Assembly (NCBI GenBank): GCA_005880445.1
Contig: VBGJ01000037.1
Span: 1-47,773, forward strand
Direction: 5' to 3'
Length of the DNA stretch: 47,773 nt
Source: Chloroflexota bacterium
Lineage (GTDB): Bacteria; Chloroflexota; Dormibacteria; Aeolococcales; Aeolococcaceae
Part shown: piece after piece, positions 9,931 through 38,500 of the stretch
How positions within the stretch are numbered: the stretch's first letter is position 1
Layout of the letters: each line of letters starts with the position of its first letter
Position numbers and translations under genes: made by a program
The notes under the pieces: generated by a model
Databases searched by the model: none
Told to the model about the DNA's origin: nothing
Seen by the model: only the letters and a program-made list of their open reading frames with translations

Positions 9931-10218
9931 GTGGGAGCCGACCGGCTTCGTGATCTGCTCGATCCGGCGCTGCGGGGTCTCGGCGTCCGCGGCCGGGTGC
10001 GCGAAGAGCAGGTGCGCCAGCTGTTCGCCCAAGCGGTGGGGCCGGCGCTCGCGCCCCTGTGCCGCGCCCAGCGGCTCGACCGCGGCGCCCTTCTCATCGC
10101 CACTGCGAACACAGCCTTGGCACATCAGCTGCAGCTGGAGTCACCGCGCTTGATCGCGGCGCTCAATGACGCGCTCGGAAGCCCGGCGGTGCGGCGTCTC
10201 CGGTTCTGCGCGATGTGA
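9931..10218 (+). CDS. DUF721 (DciA-like) protein
   Basis: GTG directly after the recF stop. A 95-aa protein with the pattern L...L..LG.......V...F...VGP.LA..C....L..G.L.I...N.A.A..L......LI..LN..LG...V..LRF, typical of DUF721 genes found downstream of recF. Confidence 0.7.
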   Translation: MGADRLRDLLDPALRGLGVRGRVREEQVRQLFAQAVGPALAPLCRAQRLDRGALLIATANTALAHQLQLESPRLIAALNDALGSPAVRRLRFCAM

Positions 10219-10221
10219 TCG

Positions 10222-11337
10222 CTAGGCCACGCGCACCGGCATGATGATGCAGAGATAGTCGTCGCGCCCCGCCGGCCGGATCACCGCTGGGAGGAGCGCA
10301 CCGTTGAACGACAGCTGCACCTCATCGGAGTCGAGCACGGACAGCGCGTCGAGCATGTAGCGCGCGTTGAACGCGATCTGCACGTCATCGCCGCTCACGC
10401 TGGCGGCCAGCGGCGCCTCGTCATCTCCCACCTCTGCGGTCTGCGCCTTCAGGGTCAGCGTCCCATCGCCCACCTGCAGCCGTACCGGATTTGCGGCGTC
10501 GCGCGCGAGCACCGAAGCGGTGCGCGCCTCGCGGAGCAGCGACTGTGTGGGCAGGCTGACCGTGGTCGCAGACTCGCCTGGGATGACCTGCGGGTAGTTG
10601 GGATACGTGCCGTCGATGAGCCGCGAGGAGATCTCGACGTCCTTCAGCGTGAAGAACACCTGGTTCTTTCCCTCCGAGAAGGCGATGGCCACCGTGGGAC
10701 GCGTCGGGTTCACCGCCCGCGCGACCTCATTGAGATGTCGCGCGGGAACGATGACCGACGCCGGCGACGCTGCCTTCGTCGTCACGTCGAGCGTCTTCAC
10801 CGCCAGGCGGTGCCGGTCGGTGGCGGCCAGCGTCAGCCGGCTTCCCTCCACCTGAAGGAGCACCCCCGTCAGAACCGGCGACGCCTCGTCGGCACTCGCG
10901 GCCATCACCGTCTGTGCGATCGCCCCCTGCAACGCCGCAGCATCGCTTTCGATCGCCGTCTCGGCGTCGTGCTTCGGCAACGGCGGGAACTCCACAGCGT
11001 CGATGCCATGCAGATTGGCCCGGTGCACACCACAGCTCAAGCGCAGCACCTGGGTCGCCGTGTCGAGCTCCATCGTGCATGGGGCGTCCCCAAGCGACGA
11101 GACATACTCACTCAGGAGACGGGCCGGCACCGTCGTTCTGCCTTCCTCGAGAACGGTCGCCGGGACGCTCACTGCGATGGACAGGTCGAGGTTGGTCGCG
11201 GTGACTCGGAGACCGTCCTCGACGGACTCGAGCAACACATTGGCGAGGACCGGCAGGGTCGAGCGGGGGGACACGGCGCGGGCGACAAGGCCCAGCGCGG
11301 AGCTGAGAGAGGAAGAGGAGACCGTGGCCTTCATCAA
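10222..11337 (-). CDS. dnaN: DNA polymerase III beta sliding clamp
   Basis: Track ORF of 371 aa. MKATVSSSSLSSAL..V.RAV..RSTLPVLANVLLE, three-domain length, directly downstream of dnaA. Confidence 0.95.
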   Translation of the reverse strand: MMKATVSSSSLSSALGLVARAVSPRSTLPVLANVLLESVEDGLRVTATNLDLSIAVSVPATVLEEGRTTVPARLLSEYVSSLGDAPCTMELDTATQVLRLSCGVHRANLHGIDAVEFPPLPKHDAETAIESDAAALQGAIAQTVMAASADEASPVLTGVLLQVEGSRLTLAATDRHRLAVKTLDVTTKAASPASVIVPARHLNEVARAVNPTRPTVAIAFSEGKNQVFFTLKDVEISSRLIDGTYPNYPQVIPGESATTVSLPTQSLLREARTASVLARDAANPVRLQVGDGTLTLKAQTAEVGDDEAPLAASVSGDDVQIAFNARYMLDALSVLDSDEVQLSFNGALLPAVIRPAGRDDYLCIIMPVRVA

Positions 11338-11584
11338 CGTGTACTCCTGTCGGCAGATACGGTTGTCACCAGACGAGTCTTTAACGACGAGCTGAGTTTA
11401 AGAGACTCAGATGTATCTATAGGGGGACGATGTCGGTGGAAAACCGCCGCTGTTGAGTTCCTTCCATGGCTCCGGGTGGCCGTGGGACTGTGCACGGACG
11501 GGCAGAGATGTGCACCGGGCGTCCACCGCTTTGGACGAGTGAGCGGGTGATGCACAGGTGGTCCCGCGGTTGTCGACAGGGTTG
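11338..11584. other. dnaA-dnaN intergenic region: AT-rich stretch, hairpin and GGTTGTCNAC repeats (candidate oriC/DUE component)
   Basis: Locally AT-rich segment 11375-11425 (gagtctttaacgacgagctgagtttaagagactcagatgtatctat) in an otherwise very GC-rich window. GGTTGTC[A/G]AC/GGTTGTCACC at 11361, 11568 and 11580. TTTTCCACC-type box on the minus strand at 11435-11443. Confidence 0.4.
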
Positions 11585-12994
11585 TCAACGGCTGTGCAGC
11601 CGGGTCCGAACCTGCCGAAGATCACCTTGCAACCGCGCGTCCTCGCGAACGAGCTCGGTGATCTTCTCGATTGCATGGAGTGCTGTCGTGTGATCGCGAC
11701 CGCCGAACGCCGCGCCGATGACGGGCAACGACGACTCGGTCTCCTCGCGGATCAGGTACATGGCCACCTGCCGCGGATAGACGATGTGCTTGTCGCGCCG
11801 CTTGCCCTTCATCTCGTCGACGGAGATGGTGTAGTGGTCGGCCACGGCCTCCTGAATCGCCTCGATGCTCACGGGGGCGACGTCCTGCACAGGGATGATG
11901 TCGCGCAGGATCTGCTGGGCTGCGTCGAGTGTCACCGGCTGCCCGTTGATGGAAGCGTGCGCGAGCACCCGGATGAGCGCACCCTCCAGCTCGCGGATGT
12001 TCTTCTGGATGCGGTGGGCGATGAACGCGCACACGTCGTCGGGGACCAGACGGCCGTACGGACCGAGCTTCGTGTTGAGAATCGCCAGGCGAGTCTCGAA
12101 GTCCGGTGGCTGGATGTCCGCCATGAGGCCGCCCTCGAAGCGGCTGCGCAGGCGGTCTTCCAGCGTCGGGATGTCCTTTGGCGGGCGGTCGCTGCTCACC
12201 ACGATCTGCTTCTGGATCTCGTGCAATGCGTTGAATGTATGGAAAAACTCTTCCTGCGTCCGGTCCTTGCCGGCGAAGAACTGAACGTCGTCGATGAGCA
12301 GGACGTCGACGGACCGGTACCTGACACGGAAGTCGGGCGATCGGTTCTCCTGAATCGCCGTGATCATCTCGTTCATGAACTTCTCTGACGTGATGTAGGC
12401 GACCTTCGCTTGGCGATGCAGCTCGCGCACGTTCTGGCCGATTGCGTGCATGAGGTGTGTCTTGCCGAGACCCACGCCGCCGTACAAGAAGAGCGGGTTG
12501 TACGCCTTGCCAGGCGCGTCGGCCACGGCGCGGCAAGCCGCGTGCGCGAAGCGGCTCGAGTTGCCGACCACGAATGTGGTGAACGTGAAGTTCGGGTTCA
12601 GGCGCGACTCGTTGGCGCCGTCCTGACGCTGCGCCAGCGGAGCCAGCGCGGTTCCGTAGTCGGGGAACGGCTCAGGCTCGTCGGGCGGAGGTGCCGCAGC
12701 GGGATCGACCGTGACGACGACGTCGCAGTCGTGCCCCAGCACGCCGGAAAGCGTTTCCCGGATCAGCGGCACATAGCGTTCGGTCAGCCAGTCACGCGCC
12801 AGCCGGGTGGGCACGCCCACGGTGAACGTGCGGCCGTCGAACTCGACGAGCACGGCATTGGCCAGCCACGTTTCGTACCCCGGCCGAGAGAGCTGGAAGC
12901 GCAACTCCTCCTGGGCGATCTGCCACACCTGCTGCGGGTCGAGAAGGGTCGCGGGAGCGTTGGCGTCTCCATCGGCCGTGGTTACTTGATCCAT
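11585..12994 (-). CDS. dnaA: chromosomal replication initiator protein DnaA
   Basis: Track ORF of 469 aa. AAA+ Walker A GGVGLGKTHLMHAIG, LLIDDVQF, the sensor region, and the C-terminal DNA-binding domain (IVYPRQVAMYL...GGRDHTT). Confidence 0.95.
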   Translation of the reverse strand: MDQVTTADGDANAPATLLDPQQVWQIAQEELRFQLSRPGYETWLANAVLVEFDGRTFTVGVPTRLARDWLTERYVPLIRETLSGVLGHDCDVVVTVDPAAAPPPDEPEPFPDYGTALAPLAQRQDGANESRLNPNFTFTTFVVGNSSRFAHAACRAVADAPGKAYNPLFLYGGVGLGKTHLMHAIGQNVRELHRQAKVAYITSEKFMNEMITAIQENRSPDFRVRYRSVDVLLIDDVQFFAGKDRTQEEFFHTFNALHEIQKQIVVSSDRPPKDIPTLEDRLRSRFEGGLMADIQPPDFETRLAILNTKLGPYGRLVPDDVCAFIAHRIQKNIRELEGALIRVLAHASINGQPVTLDAAQQILRDIIPVQDVAPVSIEAIQEAVADHYTISVDEMKGKRRDKHIVYPRQVAMYLIREETESSLPVIGAAFGGRDHTTALHAIEKITELVREDARLQGDLRQVRTRLHSR

Positions 12995-13079
12995 CTACGT
13001 CCCCGGCGCGTCGGAATCGTCGGCACCACTGACCCTCCACGCACGGCACACACCCCGCACTGCTCCTATGCACCACCAC

Positions 13080-13088
13080 TTATCCACA
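13080..13088 (+). promoter_or_regulatory. DnaA box, perfect TTATCCACA
   Basis: Exact 9/9 match to the consensus. Confidence 0.7.
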
Positions 13089-13101
13089 CGATGTTCACAG
13101 A

Positions 13102-13110
13102 CGTGGATAA
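13102..13110 (-). promoter_or_regulatory. DnaA box, 8/9 (TTATCCACG on the minus strand)
   Basis: cgtggataa on the plus strand, inverted relative to the 13080 box. Confidence 0.55.
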
Positions 13111-13268
13111 GCGAAGGTGAGAACACCGCCGTCGGGAGCTTCTGAGGATGCGTGCAGCGCTGCGCCCGTGCCGCGGCCCGGCAAGTCTAGCAATGCGGAA
13201 CGGCTGGGACAATGGGCGCGCGCCAGTGTCCGCGCCGGTATTCGCCGGCAGGTGCTGGCCTCAGCGGT

Positions 13269-13277
13269 TGGTATACT
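13269..13277 (+). promoter_or_regulatory. extended -10 promoter element (TGgTATACT) for the rpmH operon
   Basis: TGGTATACT about 70 nt upstream of rpmH. A/T-rich hexamers are rare in this sequence. Confidence 0.4.
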
Positions 13278-13346
13278 CGCGATCGGAACCTCCGTCCGGT
13301 TTGCGGTGCTTTTGCGCCCCGGACGCGATGAGCTCGGGAGAGAGCG

Positions 13347-13493
13347 ATCAAGCGGACGTATCAGCCCAAGAAGCGCTACCGGCGAAAGACCCATGGGTTT
13401 CGTGCCCGCATGGCGACTCCAGGAGGCCGGCAGGTGATCAAGGCACGGCGCCGGAAGGGTCGCAAACGCCTGACTCCCGAAGCGCCACGGTGA
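13347..13493 (+). CDS. rpmH: 50S ribosomal protein L34, apparent ATC start codon
   Basis: Not in the ORF track. Translation from 13347 is (I/M)[47 protein letters not shown], the L34 signature. An in-frame TGA sits at 13329-13331. SD GGGAGAGAG at 13336-13344. GTGA overlap with rnpA. Confidence 0.85.
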
Positions 13494-13828
13494 ATCGCCG
13501 GCATCGCCTGCGTGGGCGAAGCCGCTTTGCCGCGGTTCGCGCCAGCGGCGTGGAAACACGCTCAGGAGGGATCCGGGTTCGGGCTGCCGCCAACGGGCTC
13601 CCAATCTCTCGGGCCGGCTTCGCCATCATGTCGGCCCCGCACGCGGTGGCCCGCAACCGCCTACGCCGCCGGCTCCGCGCTCTCGTGGCGCCCATCGTGA
13701 GCCACCACCCCGGGGTCGACATCGTTGTGTCCGCCCCGGCGGCGCTGGACGCGGTCGCGGCGAACGCGCTGCGCGACGCGGTGGTCCCGCTGGTCTCCGG
13801 CGCGATCGCGGAGGCGCGTGGTCGATGA
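13490..13828 (+). CDS. rnpA: ribonuclease P protein component
   Basis: The GTG at 13490 overlaps the rpmH stop. [18 protein letters not shown]...FAI...[13 protein letters not shown] is the RnpA motif, and the position after rpmH fits. Confidence 0.85.
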
Positions 13829-14118
13829 CGCGAATCAGCCTGGCGCTGATCCGTGTCTACCAGGTCACCCTGGGACCGCTCTTCGGTGCCATGAGCAGCT
13901 GCCGGTACGAGCCGACCTGCTCCCACTACGGCTACGAAGCCATCCGACGATTCGGCTGGCGCCGCGGCTGGTGGTGCGCCGTGCGGCGCATCGCCAGATG
14001 CCACCCGTTCCACGCCGGTGGCATCGACCCGGTACCGGAGACATACGTGACGTGGCGTAGCGCGCGCCGTCTGCACAGGGAGGCCCGAGCCTCCACGCCG
14101 CAGGGGGCGCGGCCGTGA
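13825..14118 (+). CDS. yidD: membrane protein insertion efficiency factor YidD
   Basis: [33 protein letters not shown]...[22 protein letters not shown] overlap with rnpA. Confidence 0.9.
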
Positions 14119-15176
14119 ACCCATTCATCATCTTCACGTTTCTCGCCGCGCCGCTGCAGTGGCTGCTGGAGCAGCTGACCCGTACATTCAACGGCGTCGC
14201 GCCGCTGGCCTCCATCGGCGCGTTCGGTCTGGCAGTCATCGTGACCACCATCGCGATCCGCGCGGTGCTCTTCCCAGTCTTCAACTGGCAGCTGCGAACG
14301 TCGCGACGGATCCAGTCGGAGCAGCGCAAGGTCGCGCCGCAGATTCAAGAGCTGCGCAAGAAATACAAGAAAGAGCCGCAGAAGCTGAGCGCTGAGATGA
14401 ACAAGGTGTACCGGGAACACGGCATCAGCCCGTTCAGCGGGCTCACCGGCTGCCTCCCCGCACTCGTGCAGGCGCCGGTGCTCATCGGTCTGTACAACGC
14501 GATCAGAAACGCGAGCGCCCCAGGCCACCTGGTGGGGCATCCGGGTTTTCTGTGGATCAGCAATGTCAGCCAGTCGTCGCAACAGGCCTGCTGTGCCAAC
14601 GGAAACTGGGGCGGCCTGCTCACCCACCCGACGCTCTTGATCCTGCCGTTGCTTGCGGGTGCGTTCACGTTTGCGCAATCGCGAATGATGATGCCGCCAC
14701 CGCGTCCGGACATGACGGACCAGGAACGCTCGATGCAGAACGTGTCGAAGCAGATGTCCTACCTCTTCCCCGTCATGATCTTCATCTTTGCGCTGCTCTT
14801 CCCGCAGGGACTGGCGATCTACTGGGTGACAGGCACGTTCTTCATGGTGCTGCAGCAGTGGTATGTCGTCGGCTGGGGCGGGTTGAAGGTGCCCACGTGG
14901 TGGCCGGGTGCACATCGCGTGACGTCACTCTCGTATCCCAAGCCGGCCCCCGTACCGGCTCTTGTTAGTGCCAAAGATAGCCAGAACGGCCGAGCGCCGG
15001 GTCGCGGCGGCCGGGCCGCCGCGGGCTCCGGGGAGCCGGTCGGCGAGGGCGCGGACGGGTCGACGGCGCGGGAAGCGGCCACCGCCACGGCGGGATCGCC
15101 GCCGGTGCGGACGGGTGCAGCGAGATCCGCGGCTGCCCGGGCGCGTGAGCGAAACAGGAGAAGGCGCAGGCGCTGA
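14115..15176 (+). CDS. yidC: YidC/Oxa1-family membrane protein insertase
   Basis: Short Gram-positive-type YidC with motifs [47 protein letters not shown], and a basic C-terminal tail. GTGA overlap with yidD. Confidence 0.9.
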
Positions 15177-24931: not shown

Positions 24932-25438
24932 ATGCCGGCGCACGCCCTGCTGCTCGGCCACGGCGCATCTGGCACGGCGGCGTCGATGCAACCGTGGGTC
25001 CGCTCGCTCGCCGCGCACGGTGTCGCCGGCGTCGCACTCGAGCTTCCCAAGTCAAACGCGGACAGAGCGGCCGAGGTCTTCAAGCGAGCGCTTGCCGGCG
25101 AGCCGGAAGCGGCGATCGGTGGACACTCGTACGGCGGCCGAGTGGCGAGCCTGCTCGCGGCCGCGCAACCGGTGGCCGCGCTCGTGCTGCTGAGCTATCC
25201 GCTGCACCGGCCGGGGCATCCGGAGGAGCTGCGCACTGATCATTGGCGGCGCATCGCGTGTCCGGTGCTGCTGCTGTCGGGCGAGCGCGATCAGTTCGCG
25301 ACGCTGGACTTGCTACAACGCGAGGCGCGAAAGCTGAAGCGCGCGGAGCTGTTCACGTACCCGGGACAACGGCACGGTTTGCTCGATGTCAAGGACGATG
25401 CGGCGCGCCGCATCGCGGCGTTTCTGGCGTCGAACTAG
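24932..25438 (+). CDS. alpha/beta hydrolase family protein (KANL3/Tex30-like)
   Basis: ATG 2 nt after the MFS stop. LLLGHGASG..., nucleophile elbow GGHSYGG, then LLLSGERD and a C-terminal His. Confidence 0.7.
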   Translation: MPAHALLLGHGASGTAASMQPWVRSLAAHGVAGVALELPKSNADRAAEVFKRALAGEPEAAIGGHSYGGRVASLLAAAQPVAALVLLSYPLHRPGHPEELRTDHWRRIACPVLLLSGERDQFATLDLLQREARKLKRAELFTYPGQRHGLLDVKDDAARRIAAFLASN

Positions 25439-25503
25439 GAGGGGCGGGACGTGCGCGCAGGCGCCCTAGCTCAGGAGGCGCCGTAGCGCATGTCCCGCCC
25501 CTC
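25439..25503 (+). repeat. structured hairpin repeat H1 (loop CTAGCTCAGGA)
   Basis: GAGGGGCGGGACGTGCGC-GCA-GGCGCC-CTAGCTCAGGA-GGCGCC-GTA-GCGCATGTCCCGCCCCTC. It starts 1 nt after the hydrolase TAG and ends 18 nt before the sufS stop. Confidence 0.85.
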
Positions 25504-25520
25504 GCAGACCACGGAACGCG

Positions 25521-26693
25521 CTACAGGCGGAACACGCGGCGCACGTCGGTGAGAGCGGCGCCGAGCGAGTCGATCTCGGTGTGCGTGTTGTACAGGTATA
25601 CGGAGGCGCGCGCCATCGAGGCGACGTCGTAGCGGTGCATCAGCGGCTGTGCGCAGTGGTGACCGGCGCGCACCGCGATGCCATGCCGGTCGAGGATGGT
25701 GCCGACGTCGTGGGCGTGCACGTCGCCGAGGTTGAAGCTGACCGCGCCGCCGCGGGGCGAGCCGTCGCGCGGGCCGAAGATCGTCACGTCGCCGACCTCG
25801 TCGACGCAGGCGGCCTCGAGCCCCACGACGCTCGCGACGTCGGGCGTCCCCGCCTCGAACTTGTGCGGCACCGTGTTCCACGTGGTGCGCTCGAGTGTCA
25901 CGCGCGCGATCATGCTGCCGCCGCCGAGGAACGGTGGCATGCGCTCGAGCAGCTCCGGGCGCGCCCAGAGCACGCCGACGCCCATGGGGGCGCACATCTT
26001 GTGTCCGCTGAACGCGACGAAGTCGCTGCCCAGCTCGCGAACCGACACGGGCATGTGCGGCACCGACTGCGCGGCGTCGACGCAGACCAGAGCCCCGGCG
26101 GCGTGGGCTCGCTCCGTGATGCCCCGGATGTCGTTGATCGTTCCCAACACGTTGGATTGATGGCTGAGGCAGACGAGCTTGGTTGGCGCGCCGAGGAGCT
26201 CGTCGAGCCGGGTGAGGTCGAGGCGGCCGTCGTCGGTGATGTCCAGGAAGGCAAGCTCGAGACCTGCGCGGTCCGCGGCCAGCTGCCACGGAACGAGATT
26301 GCTGTGGTGCTCCATGACGCTGAGCACGATGCGATCACCGGGCGAGAGCAGCTCGCGTGCGTACGAGGACGCGACGAGGTTCAGCCCCTCGGTCGCGTTA
26401 CGCACAAAGACGAGGCCTTCGGCAGGTGCATCGATGAACTGCGCCACGCGGCGGCGCGCGTTCTCGAAGAGATCTGTCGCTTCGCTGGCGAGGGAGTGCA
26501 CGCCGCGGTGCACGTTGGCGTTGCTGGTCCGGTAGTAGCGTTCGACCGCGTCGAGAACCTGCACCGGCTTCTGTGATGTCGCCGCCGAGTCCAGATAGAT
26601 CAGCGGCGCATCGCGCACCGCGCGCTGGAGGATGGGGAAGTCCTGACGGACGCGCGCGACATCGAGCGCCGGCGCGGTCGCGAGCTCGGTCAT
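25521..26693 (-). CDS. sufS: cysteine desulfurase SufS (group II), about 25 aa shorter than usual in the small-domain junction
   Basis: FPIL, YLDSAATSQKP, NANVHRGVH, SGHKM (PLP Lys), FEAGTP, RAGHHCAQPLM (catalytic Cys). ATGA overlap with the upstream Rieske gene. Confidence 0.9.
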   Translation of the reverse strand: MTELATAPALDVARVRQDFPILQRAVRDAPLIYLDSAATSQKPVQVLDAVERYYRTSNANVHRGVHSLASEATDLFENARRRVAQFIDAPAEGLVFVRNATEGLNLVASSYARELLSPGDRIVLSVMEHHSNLVPWQLAADRAGLELAFLDITDDGRLDLTRLDELLGAPTKLVCLSHQSNVLGTINDIRGITERAHAAGALVCVDAAQSVPHMPVSVRELGSDFVAFSGHKMCAPMGVGVLWARPELLERMPPFLGGGSMIARVTLERTTWNTVPHKFEAGTPDVASVVGLEAACVDEVGDVTIFGPRDGSPRGGAVSFNLGDVHAHDVGTILDRHGIAVRAGHHCAQPLMHRYDVASMARASVYLYNTHTEIDSLGAALTDVRRVFRL

Positions 26694-31675: not shown

Positions 31676-32738
31676 GCCCGTCCGGGGCGAGCTTGGCCCT
31701 CACCAGGGCGATCACGGCGTCGGTGAACTCGCTCGTGAACGCCTGCCCACCGAGGTCTGCGGTGCGCGTGCCCGCTCGGACCGTCTCGAACGTCGCCTCG
31801 TAGATGGCACGCGACGCGGCTCGTGCCGGCGCGTCGGGGGTGAACGCAAGAAGCGATGCGATTGCCAGGATCATCGCCATCGGATTGGCGATGTTCTTTC
31901 CCTGGAGCGCCGGCGCCGTGCCGTGAGGTGCCTCCGCCATCACCACGCTTGGCGTGAGCCCCTCGTCGTGAAATCCCAGGACCAGGGACTCCGCACCGGC
32001 GATGCTGCCGAACATCTGGAGCACGAGGTCACTCAGGCAGTCGCCGTCGCGGTTCATAGCCGGGATGACGAGCGGCTCACCTGCGCGGCTGAACAGCAGC
32101 GCGTATGTCGCGTCGATGAGCTGCGGTTCGTACGTCACGTCCGGGTGGCGCTGCGCGGCCGCGTCCATCTCCTCTTTGAACATGCCCTCGTACACACGCG
32201 AAACCGTGAACTTTGGACCGCCGAACACCCGGGCGTGCACGGTCCGCGCGTGCTGGAAGGCGAACTCGGCGACAACACGGCACGTGTTCCGGGAGATCCG
32301 CTCGGTGCGAAACGCGAGCTCGTCTGAGTTGCTGATCTCGCGCCACTCCTTGGCGTTGTATGCATCGTCGACCGCCATGCGCACCACGCTGATCGGCGCG
32401 CCGACTCCGGCGATGCCGGCCACTCCTGGGATGCGCCGCCCGGTGCGGAGAATCACCTTGCCGCCGACGCGCTCACGCAACAGCGCGTTCGGGCTGCCGA
32501 CATCGCTCGCGTCCTCCGGAGTCACCGTCGCGGCCTTGAGCCCATAACCGCAGGCGACCATCGCGTCGGCCGCCTCCACCACCACCGCGTTGCTGGTCGC
32601 GCGGCGGTGGTCCAGGGATAGGTCGAAGAAGCGCAGGTCGAGCGCGATGCCGATGACGCCAGGGCTGATCACCCGCAGCGCCTGCTCCAGCAGCTCTTCG
32701 CCGGTCTGGTCACCGCGAAGCACCGCGATCGTCGTCAT
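31647..32738 (-). CDS. isocitrate/isopropylmalate dehydrogenase family protein
   Basis: 363 aa. IAVLRGDQTGEEL, NRDGDCLSDL, APHGTAP...GKNIANP are signatures of the beta-decarboxylating dehydrogenase family. Substrate not assignable by eye. Confidence 0.85.
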   Translation of the reverse strand: MTTIAVLRGDQTGEELLEQALRVISPGVIGIALDLRFFDLSLDHRRATSNAVVVEAADAMVACGYGLKAATVTPEDASDVGSPNALLRERVGGKVILRTGRRIPGVAGIAGVGAPISVVRMAVDDAYNAKEWREISNSDELAFRTERISRNTCRVVAEFAFQHARTVHARVFGGPKFTVSRVYEGMFKEEMDAAAQRHPDVTYEPQLIDATYALLFSRAGEPLVIPAMNRDGDCLSDLVLQMFGSIAGAESLVLGFHDEGLTPSVVMAEAPHGTAPALQGKNIANPMAMILAIASLLAFTPDAPARAASRAIYEATFETVRAGTRTADLGGQAFTSEFTDAVIALVRAKLAPDGLTRETERSS

Positions 32739-32785
32739 GCGGCGAAAGCCTACCGTCAGGGTGTCTTGCGGGTGGTCATGGGCCA

Positions 32786-32843
32786 GGCGGTCACAAGCGC
32801 GTAGGCCGCATAGCTCAGGAGCGGCCGGAGCGCTTGTGCCGCC
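32786..32843 (+). repeat. structured hairpin repeat H2 (loop ATAGCTCAGGA)
   Basis: GGCGGTCACAAGCGC-GTA-GGCCGC-ATAGCTCAGGA-GCGGCC-GGA-GCGCTTGTGCCGCC. It lies between the stop of the CheY-like gene (32871) and the start of the dehydrogenase gene (32738). Confidence 0.8.
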
Positions 32844-32870
32844 TGCCTAAAACCACTGATGCCCTGGTCG

Positions 32871-33236
32871 CTAGATGAACGTCAGCAGGTCCTCGACGAT
32901 CTCCACGAGCTCGTCGCCCCGTATCGGTTTGCTGATCACCGCCGCGGCGCCGAGCTGCTGCGCCCGTTCCCGTGTGCCGACGTCGCCCGGCTCGGTGAGG
33001 ATCACCACCCCGCCGGGCGGATGCTCGGGGGCGAAGCGGATCGCTTGAAAGAACTCGAGCCCGTCGGTGTCCAGCGTCGTGTCGAGGATGAGAACGTCCG
33101 GCGAAAACATGGGTAACTCGGCGCGCACCTCGCGCACGGCTCGCACCCAGTGCACCTCGTATCCGATCCCGGTGAAGCGGTCGATCACCGGTTGCGCAAG
33201 CTTCGCCTCGTCTTCCGCGACCAGGATGCGGGGCAT
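32871..33236 (-). CDS. single-domain (CheY-like) response regulator receiver protein
   Basis: Internal ATG at 33236 gives MPRILVAEDE...DVLILDTTL...KP, 121 aa, with no output domain. Confidence 0.8.
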   Translation of the reverse strand: MPRILVAEDEAKLAQPVIDRFTGIGYEVHWVRAVREVRAELPMFSPDVLILDTTLDTDGLEFFQAIRFAPEHPPGGVVILTEPGDVGTRERAQQLGAAAVISKPIRGDELVEIVEDLLTFI

Positions 33237-37515: not shown

Positions 37516-37541
37516 CTCGCTCGGGGGCGTGGTTGAGGCGA

Positions 37542-37600
37542 GGAGGAGACACTCGCTGCGGCGTCTCCTGAGCTAGGCCGCCTTCGCGAGTGTCTCCTCC
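37542..37600 (-). repeat. structured hairpin repeat H3 (loop motif on the minus strand)
   Basis: The minus strand reads GGAGGAGACACTCGC-GAA-GGCGGC-CTAGCTCAGGA-GACGCC-GCA-GCGAGTGTCTCCTCC. The 15-bp outer stem is perfect. Confidence 0.8.
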
Positions 37601-37639
37601 CCGCCAACGCACGCGACCGGCTCGCAGGGCGTGGCGCAG

Positions 37640-37702
37640 GGGATCGGGACGTGCGCGCAGGCGCCATAGCTCAGGAGGCGCCGAAGCGCATGTCCCGATC
37701 CC
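37640..37702 (+). repeat. structured hairpin repeat H4 (loop ATAGCTCAGGA)
   Basis: GGGATCGGGACGTGCGC-GCA-GGCGCC-ATAGCTCAGGA-GGCGCC-GAA-GCGCATGTCCCGATCCC. It lies 39 nt from H3, in the convergent spacer between yvcK and the crotonase gene. Confidence 0.85.
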
Positions 37703-37714
37703 GATCAGCACCAC

Positions 37715-38500
37715 TTATTGCTGCAGCCGGGTTCCGTGGCGGCCCTCGCCGTGGCGAAAACGCTCCGCTCCGGCGACCGTCTCGCCCGAGGCGACCACCC
37801 GCAGCCCGTGCTCCGTCTCGTTGCGCAGGGCAGACGGCGTGTCCATCGACCACTGCTCGTAAACGGACAGACGGTCGCTGCGCATGCACGTTTGCGGCAG
37901 CGCCGCGAGCTCCTGGGCCAGCCGTTGCGCCGCGGCGAGGGCGGTACCACGCGGCACCACCCGGTCGACGAGGCCGATCGCGCGGGCTTCCGTCGCGTCG
38001 ACGGCCCTCCCGGTCAGGATCAGATCGAGCGCGCGGCCGTGACCGATGAGGCGGGGGAGACGGATGGTGCCGCCATCCATCAGCGGAACGCCGAAGCGGC
38101 GGCAGAAGACTCCGAAGACGGCGTTCTCCGCGGCAACGCGAAGGTCGCACCACAGCGCGAGCTCCAGACCACCGGCCACGGCGTGTCCCTCCACCGCCGC
38201 GATGACCGGCTTGCCAACGAGCATCCGCGACAGCCCGAGCGGTGCGTCGCCGTCGACGTCGAGGCGTGGCCCACGCGGGTCGTCAGGCGATATCGAGGTG
38301 AGGTCGGCCCCGGCGCAGAACGTGTCACGAGCGCCGGTGAGGATGGCGACGTTCAACGAATCGTCGACGGCGAATTCTCGGAACGCGCCGGCGAGGGCCG
38401 ACGCCGTAGGGCCGTCGACCGCGTTGCGCACCTCCGGCCTATCGATGACCACCGTCATCACCCCGGCCGTGCGCAATGTGCGCACCGTTGGCGTCGACAT
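37715..38500 (-). CDS. enoyl-CoA hydratase/isomerase (crotonase) family protein
   Basis: Internal ATG at 38500. VIDRPEVRNA, FCAGADL, AAVEGHAVAGGLELALWCDLRVA, the crotonase oxyanion-hole motifs. Confidence 0.85.
   Translation of the reverse strand: MSTPTVRTLRTAGVMTVVIDRPEVRNAVDGPTASALAGAFREFAVDDSLNVAILTGARDTFCAGADLTSISPDDPRGPRLDVDGDAPLGLSRMLVGKPVIAAVEGHAVAGGLELALWCDLRVAAENAVFGVFCRRFGVPLMDGGTIRLPRLIGHGRALDLILTGRAVDATEARAIGLVDRVVPRGTALAAAQRLAQELAALPQTCMRSDRLSVYEQWSMDTPSALRNETEHGLRVVASGETVAGAERFRHGEGRHGTRLQQ

Follow-up and report, generated by a model that had tools for sequence, protein, structure and literature searches.

The window analysed here, meaning the whole 47,773-nt stretch of DNA, belongs to an NCBI MAG contig of an uncultured soil bacterium, deposited as 'Chloroflexi bacterium' (protein TME49164.1), whose closest named relatives are Candidatus Dormibacteraeota. 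To our knowledge, Candidatus Dormibacterota have very few cultured representatives and nothing is known of their non-coding genome. Positions 10222-15176 of the window form the chromosomal origin region. The dnaN and dnaA genes, the DnaA boxes, rpmH-rnpA-yidD and yidC together place the replication origin at about 11-13 kb, and the cumulative GC skew has its minimum near 6-10 kb. The features of this region are:

9931-10218: DciA gene
10222-11337, minus strand: dnaN
11585-12994, minus strand: dnaA
13080-13088 (plus strand) and 13102-13110 (minus strand): DnaA boxes, TTATCCACA
after the DnaA boxes: rpmH, rnpA and yidD, read by eye
14115-15176, plus strand: yidC

Four hairpins, H1 to H4, sit 12-25 kb into the right replichore. 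H1 lies between convergent alpha/beta-hydrolase and SufS-like genes, H2 between a response regulator gene and an isocitrate-dehydrogenase-like gene (Iso_dh), and H3 and H4 together between convergent CofD/YvcK-like and enoyl-CoA hydratase genes. Bit scores in the list are from a covariance model built on 13 family members (model R1).

25439-25503, plus strand: H1, a 65-nt hairpin with an 18-bp outer stem including one G.T; internal loop GCA/GTA; inner stem GGCGCC/GGCGCC; loop CTAGCTCAGGA at 25466-25476; 71.7 bits; flanked by the alpha/beta-hydrolase stop at 25436-25438 (plus strand) and the SufS-like gene stop at 25521 (minus strand)
25508-25512, plus strand: ACCAC, 4 nt 3' of the H1 foot
32786-32843, plus strand: H2, a 58-nt hairpin with a bulged T in its 5' arm; internal loop GTA/GGA; inner stem GGCCGC/GCGGCC; loop ATAGCTCAGGA; 70.9 bits; flanked by the response regulator stop at 32871 (minus strand) and the Iso_dh start at 32738 (minus strand), antisense to both
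32852-32856, plus strand: ACCAC, 8 nt 3' of the H2 foot
37537-37605 (core 37542-37600), minus strand: H3; internal loop GAA/GCA; inner stem GGCGGC/GACGCC with a G.A mismatch; loop CTAGCTCAGGA; 69.1 bits; 22-27 nt past the CofD/YvcK-like gene stop (37515)
37529-37533, minus strand: ACCAC (GTGGT on the plus strand), 3 nt 3' of the H3 foot
37640-37702, plus strand: H4, a 63-nt hairpin; internal loop GCA/GAA; inner stem GGCGCC/GGCGCC; loop ATAGCTCAGGA; 74 bits
37710-37714, plus strand: ACCAC, 7 nt 3' of the H4 foot and immediately next to the enoyl-CoA hydratase stop
37715-37717: TTA, the enoyl-CoA hydratase stop, read on the minus strand

Architecture and distribution of the hairpin family

The pattern TAGCTCAGGA has exactly four matches in the 47.8-kb window, versus 1.2 expected at up to one mismatch. 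With model R1, H1-H4 score 69-74 bits and the next-best match in the window 16 bits. In all four, an outer stem is followed by a 3x3 internal loop, then the inner stem and the 11-nt loop, and the folds reach z = -6.2 to -8.9 relative to shuffled sequence; the original prediction had delimited and segmented them in the same way, and each folds as it described. In the family unit, a hairpin of about 60-70 nt whose 5' arm is rich in G, a GNA/GNA 3x3 internal loop separates the outer stem from a 6-bp GC inner stem, on which sits the 11-nt apical loop NTAGCTCAGGA. This apical module is conserved far more than the stems. The inner stems first reported for H1, H4 and H2 are those listed above, and H3 adds one that contains a G.A mismatch. 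The internal loop, said to have the geometry of tandem sheared G-A pairs, does keep GNA opposite GNA, but an N.N opposition separates its two G.A oppositions, so that they are not strictly tandem.

The outer stems of H2 and H3 had been called unrelated to those of H1 and H4. We found instead that they are homologous: the full-length alignment has the consensus G..GGGG.GGGACGTGCGC, with homology spanning the entire hairpin across loci, and the nine outer pairs adjoining the internal loop share the consensus xACxxxCGC/GCGxxxGTx. H3 and H4 form a divergent pair whose 5' ends face each other across a 34-39-nt spacer.

Outside the fold, ACCAC occurs 3-8 nt 3' of the foot in all four window copies (chance about 8e-8) and at this distance in 7 of 12 loci overall. 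It is gone from the orthologs at L022, L034, L053 and L054. Present in every window copy and missing from orthologs, the pentamer looks like a trace of recent activity in one lineage and not of long-term function.

Across soil metagenomes and related contigs, window included, the family comprises about 18 distinct sequences at 11 loci, so that about 14 lie beyond the window's four; all 11 loci are intergenic, among housekeeping genes. An exact scan of the soil metagenomes for GGCNNCNTAGCTCAGGAGNNGCC returned 35 loci, 15 of them with true members. The same exact scan gave only four chance matches in 185,579 species-representative genomes, none with the hairpin architecture, and zero matches in viral contigs. 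Model R1 recovered variants that the exact pattern had missed, at L017A (loop ATAGCTCAGGGA, inner stem GGCGAC/GTCGCC), L016 (3' internal loop short by one base), L053 (loop ATAGCTTGGGA) and L054. The loop is thus as invariant as first claimed within the window, but it varies in relatives. The copy at L054 (10828-10908) is decayed: its 5' arm is mismatched to its 3' arm and its inner stem has a C.C mismatch, and it retains GGA-GGCGCC-ATAGCTCAGGA-GCCGCC-GTA with a fold z-score of -2.0. Two further loci, L015 and L033, were discarded as chance matches in which the same 23-mer sits inside coding ORFs. At L015 (2551-2703) the 23-mer, GGCCCCATAGCTCAGGAGGGGCC, occurs twice in a 108-bp tandem repeat towards the end of an ORF of 823 codons on an unrelated contig; these copies were judged chance matches because they have neither GNA loops nor an outer stem.

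By CofD identity the family is confined to a clade of two sub-clades, one holding the window and L034 (97.7%), the other L053 and L054 (97.4%), with about 94% identity between them. The window has four copies in its 47.8 kb; in the sister sub-clade, stretches of 21 kb and 13 kb have one each. About 100 kb from relatives with CofD identity of 88% or less yielded no member, and a search of L040, L041 and L045-L048 for an analogous family with a different loop found none.

A search of the whole window against Rfam 15 at gathering thresholds gave no match. E-value searches of the hairpins against Rfam 15 gave only sub-threshold matches to microRNA-type hairpins and to Chloroflexi-1 RNA (RF01698). 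The latter, like this family, is a multi-copy hairpin-containing motif, and it bears the name of the phylum under which the contig was deposited; its match is to H1 only and on the opposite strand (window 25414-25518, minus strand, covering H1 and flanks including the GTGGT flank), at 29 bits versus a gathering threshold of 80. It is probably a chance match, and H2-H4 have none such. A literature search on the loop sequence, or on Dormibacterota together with REP, found nothing relevant. The family is a previously undescribed, lineage-restricted one from a single narrow clade of Candidatus Dormibacterota. The outcomes on which the original prediction had staked the family all fell in its favor, since relatives hold further copies, covariation exceeds controls and no Rfam family matches.

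Maintenance of a single-stranded fold

In the full-length alignment 94.6% of cells are paired; shuffles give 73.5%, and sliding the partner column lowers the figure to 34-49%. As had been proposed, the stems change and the pairing is kept: 17 of 29 pairs are altered on both arms. The 47-column core behaves likewise (95.4% paired versus 79%), with both-side change in 8 of 15 pairs. GNA stands opposite GNA in every copy while N varies freely.

The deviations from Watson-Crick pairing are distributed asymmetrically between the strands. At the sixth outer pair about 12 of 14 copies have R-U (6 G.U and 5 A.U, next to 1 C.G and 2 G.C). The 195 cells of the 47-column core contain seven G.U and zero A.C, and the full stems contain, by our own count, about 10 independent G.U or U.G versus a single A.C (in L053). 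The opposite strand would carry UNC/UNC loops and A.C mismatches. In line with this asymmetry, the GNA strand gives the more stable RNA fold in each of the 13 hairpins tested, and with DNA parameters it does so for H1-H4 as well. With the G.U pairs and GNA/GNA loops confined almost entirely to one strand, we conclude that what is maintained is the single-stranded fold of that particular strand, as RNA or DNA, and not a duplex site; the original prediction had likewise placed selection on a folded single-stranded form.

This asymmetry bears directly on the idea that the hairpins are double-stranded DNA sites for a dimeric protein, for example an origin-proximal nucleoid or partition protein. 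The sequences are nearly palindromic and the window adjoins the replication origin, as such sites would have it, but the GNA/GNA oppositions and G.T pairs break the palindrome in a strand-specific way that duplex recognition does not predict, and the 11-nt centre is asymmetric. We regard such sites as very improbable. The same strand-specific features would suit independently transcribed small RNA genes, for which the divergent pairs could share a central promoter region. However, promoter-like sites were not found in the region, the spacers of the two pairs measure just 39-48 nt and do not resemble each other in sequence, conservation does not extend to the upstream flanks and Rfam gives no match, which leaves small RNA genes with very little probability.

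Gene context, terminators and orientation

The original prediction had put all copies at gene 3' ends. This holds for the window with the exception of H2, which is sited between one stop and one start of minus-strand genes. Genes are convergent at H1, H3/H4, L012 and L016 and on the same strand at H2 and L014. At L014, between purL and purF, the GNA strand is the sense strand; at H3/H4 each copy carries it antisense to whichever gene is nearer. Divergent hairpin pairs with 5' ends facing occur at two unrelated loci, H3/H4 and L017A/B (48-nt spacer), and the remaining single copies lie between convergent genes and are uninformative on orientation. The orientation of the GNA strand is thus independent of the direction of flanking transcription.

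These observations weigh on a cis-acting RNA element in 3' UTRs or intercistronic spacers, either a factor-dependent or U-tract-less ('I-shaped') terminator or an mRNA-stabilising hairpin, with an RNA-binding protein recognising the loop and the G.A platform. Much in the family would fit such an element: the location at gene ends, mostly between convergent genes; the very stable folds; the G.U pairing and the purine-purine internal loops, both typical where RNA structure is under selection; the lack of canonical terminators seen nearby; and a core conserved at orthologous sites. The loop also contains AGGAG, which to judge from its sequence could serve as a Shine-Dalgarno-like, GGA-type protein-binding sequence. 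Against this, the strand bearing the features is antisense at H2 (to both genes) and at H3/H4 (to the nearer genes) yet sense at purL-purF, and such mixed orientation argues against a strand-specific mRNA element for all copies. Copies are also gained, lost and exchanged between close relatives, which is the behavior of a repeat element, and the family is absent from relatives with CofD identity of 88% or less that carry the same genes. An RNA element of this kind is the main alternative, but in our judgment unlikely. The terminator and RNA-stability roles initially put forward are accordingly weakened as strand-specific functions, and no copy has a T-run.

Intrinsic terminators, including the U-tract-less ones of high-GC bacteria, resemble the family in being stable GC hairpins past stop codons that are often shared by convergent genes. 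The window family differs in having no T/U run, in loop and internal-loop sequences common to unrelated genes and in its restriction to one clade. For an intrinsic (L-shaped) terminator the defining T/U run is absent: the window hairpins have no T-run on either strand. A terminator scan of 15 kb gave two sites versus 4.4 expected, neither overlapping a hairpin, and no excess of T-tailed hairpins. We also considered, and dropped, the idea that transcription of the nearest gene always yields the antisense strand, which would make GUGGU an mRNA motif; same-strand contexts split 1:1 (H2, L014), and the instability of ACCAC in orthologs further undercuts it.

Two observations concern the spacers themselves. 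The 132-nt gap that holds H2 (window 32739-32870) corresponds to a place where relatives carry an opposite-strand gene of 159-190 aa between the response-regulator and Iso_dh genes (L040 2107-2640, L045 5772-6344, L054 15755-16234), and the ancestral Iso_dh start, ATGACCACC, persists upstream in the window as a 7-codon stub. Where relatives lack the family, different long GC-rich palindromes occupy the spacer between the CofD and enoyl-CoA hydratase genes (L045 11449-11493; L048 about 2665-2850; L046 5340-5440), one of them spanning about 190 nt. Long hairpins between convergent genes seem to be general in the phylum.

Copy turnover and likeness to REP elements

H1 has orthologs in L042-44 and L022, the same H2 copy is found in L005 and L020, and orthologs of H3 occur in L034, L053 and L054. 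L041 (SufS 88% identical at the amino acid level) lacks H1 and has only a 7-bp hairpin at that site. H4 is missing from the same spacer in L034 (CofD 97.7%), L053 and L054. Copies are therefore gained or lost between close relatives. The site after the CofD gene, occupied in both sub-clades, marks the H3 copy as old. The original prediction had set selection against recent duplication, and this opposition does not hold: H1 and H4 have a 57-nt block in common that differs at two free positions only, and together with the absence of H4 from three relatives this block makes duplication part of the story.

The H3 site also documents change within copies. Between the window and L034, 32% of third codon positions under unchanged amino acids differ. 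The hairpin at this site has 0 changes in about 26 constrained core positions, and all three of its free positions differ (the two N and the first loop base). Its outer stem has substitutions on both arms and a 3-bp indel that is likewise present on both arms. The L053 hairpin at the same site has a stem 17/18 identical to that of window H1, and L054 joins an L034-like 3' arm to a foreign 5' arm in a poor fold (z = -2.0). Judged by sequence, whole or half hairpins at the H3 site look like replacements from other copies. Conservation of the core may thus reflect host-level selection, homogenisation by exchange between copies, or both, so that the selection on the loop proposed earlier may be one contributor and exchange another.

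Several copies are rearranged. At L022 (1780-1815, minus strand) the complete H1 ortholog is immediately preceded by, and fused to, an additional partial copy that comprises the 5' arm, GCA, GGCGCC and the greater part of the loop; this partial copy is either a half-element duplication or a recombination scar. The 5' arm of L018 is similarly rearranged relative to L012. L021 (2660-2807) joins the H1 left flank and 5' arm to an H4-like 3' arm and right flank; as its stem base is unpaired, this junction is most likely a chimera created at the repeat during metagenome assembly, and it serves as a practical warning for assemblies of this Dormibacterota clade.

Insertion of the core alone into the loop of a pre-existing terminator hairpin was rejected as a general rule. 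The small hairpin at the empty L041 H1 site and a GGATGACAC/GTGTCCTCC hairpin in L046 had hinted at it, but the basal stems are homologous across loci, and matching arms are missing where H4 or H1 is absent.

With modest confidence, we favor the explanation that the hairpins are clade-specific, dispersed repeats of the REP (repetitive extragenic palindromic) type, probably spread as single-stranded DNA and retained as gene-end hairpins. We base this on their being dispersed, intergenic, imperfect palindromes with sub-families, inverted pairs, an unpaired motif, lineage restriction and turnover. Among the candidate roles listed in the original prediction, the REP-like element is the best fit. 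REPs have been described as palindromes with an unpaired end motif that form inverted dimers and lie between unidirectional or convergent ORFs (PMC3733652), and GTGG-type tags are listed for Pseudomonas REPs (PMC2817692). The window family shares with REPs, BIMEs and REPINs the dispersed extragenic GC-rich imperfect palindromes, the inverted pairs, the unpaired motif at one end, the intercistronic or convergent siting, the coexistence of sub-families in one genome, the lineage restriction and the gain and loss of copies (PMC3733652, PMC2817692).

The copies are extragenic, and H3/H4 and L017A/B form dimers of opposite orientation, as in REPs. REPs usually exceed 100 copies per genome; the counts for this family come from shorter stretches, with four copies in 47.8 kb and one each in 21 kb and 13 kb. 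Some REP hallmarks differ. At 58-75 nt the window family is about twice the 20-40 of REPs, and only the inner hairpin (GNAG, the 6-bp stem and the 11-nt loop, 26-29 nt) falls within that size range. Classical REPs conserve the stem more than the loop; here the most conserved part is the 11-nt loop with the inner stem and the GNA/GNA platform, and not the stem. Neither GTAG nor CGTC abuts the stem as an unpaired end motif, and the feet carry no conserved tag. The GNAG within the hairpin reads GTAG in only about half of the copies. ACCAC is detached from the foot by 3-8 nt, and if it is read as a GTGG-type tag, that tag and the G.A and G.U features fall on opposite strands.

Under the REP-type explanation, new copies would arise via a single-stranded DNA intermediate handled by a hairpin-recognising HUH/Y1 enzyme of the RAYT or IS200/IS605 TnpA kind. 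For recognition, the putative enzyme would use the loop together with the G.A platform and the adjacent pentamer. Copies already in place would be kept because a long GC hairpin at gene ends could be useful to the host, whether as a two-way transcription stop, as mRNA 3'-end protection or as a protein-binding site. REPINs are mobilised by RAYT Y1 transposases, encoded in REPIN-RAYT systems by a single-copy RAYT (Y1_Tnp) gene that the repeats flank. We know of no RAYT gene in this lineage. In tblastn searches of only about 0.3 Mb from this and related lineages, with approximate IS200 TnpA and E. coli RAYT queries, no Y1/HUH transposase was found.

Single-stranded mobility is also the core of another explanation, in which the copies would be solo ends or miniature derivatives (PATE-like) of IS200/IS605 elements, the hairpin a subterminal structure bound by the transposase and ACCAC the pentamer that is cleaved or targeted. 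IS200/IS605 hairpins and PATEs resemble the family in combining an imperfect hairpin with a nearby short motif; theirs are recognised as single-stranded DNA and the motif is a 4-5-nt cleavage or target sequence. In the window family too, a short conserved unpaired motif follows the hairpin 3-8 nt away and the features are single-strand-specific. In the right replichore, where the hairpins lie, the lagging-strand template is the strand that folds in H1, H2 and H4; H3 folds on the other strand. Lagging-strand targeting by IS200/IS605-type elements has been described (PMC6006769), and placement of three of the four window copies is consistent with targeting of single-stranded DNA, under this explanation as under the REP-type one, although with n = 4 it is not significant. 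On the other side, no tnpA or tnpB was seen in the DNA covered, and copies occur solo or in inverted pairs, never as paired left and right ends in direct orientation; both hairpin pairs are inverted, not direct. The spacing of ACCAC varies besides (3, 4, 7 and 8 nt), whereas in IS608 guide-sequence recognition fixes the distance to the target motif. Descent from IS200/IS605 ends is, in our estimate, improbable.

Integron attC sites, with their R''/L''-L'/R' boxes (GTTRRRY core), variable apical loop and gene-cassette context, likewise differ from the family: GTTRRRY/RYYYAAC boxes are absent, the apical loop is the conserved part and the flanks are syntenic housekeeping genes. Comparisons by eye with tRNA D-arm mimicry, K-turns, sarcin-ricin motifs, SRP RNA, attC and parS were dropped, as their defining features are missing.

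A further thought, which we hold to be rather unlikely, is that the apical module, with its loop and short GC stem on a G.A / N.N / A.G platform, may be a host-selected site for a dedicated single-strand-binding protein, so that the family would be a domesticated genome-organising or 3'-end-processing signal peculiar to this clade and not merely selfish. Such a protein would recognise either RNA at the ends of genes or DNA of the lagging-strand template, and hairpin-templated correction would keep the arms paired. Correction of that kind would explain the symmetric indels and the half-replaced arms.

For Dormibacterota genomes, the covariance model provides a means of annotation, and the family helps explain why contigs assembled from soil metagenomes break or come out chimeric. 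In a compact, natural setting it brings together strand-specific non-Watson-Crick features, conservation of the loop above that of the stem and arm replacement at one orthologous site. As such, the family offers a test bed for telling selection and concerted evolution apart among palindromic repeats, and for identifying the protein by which it is read.
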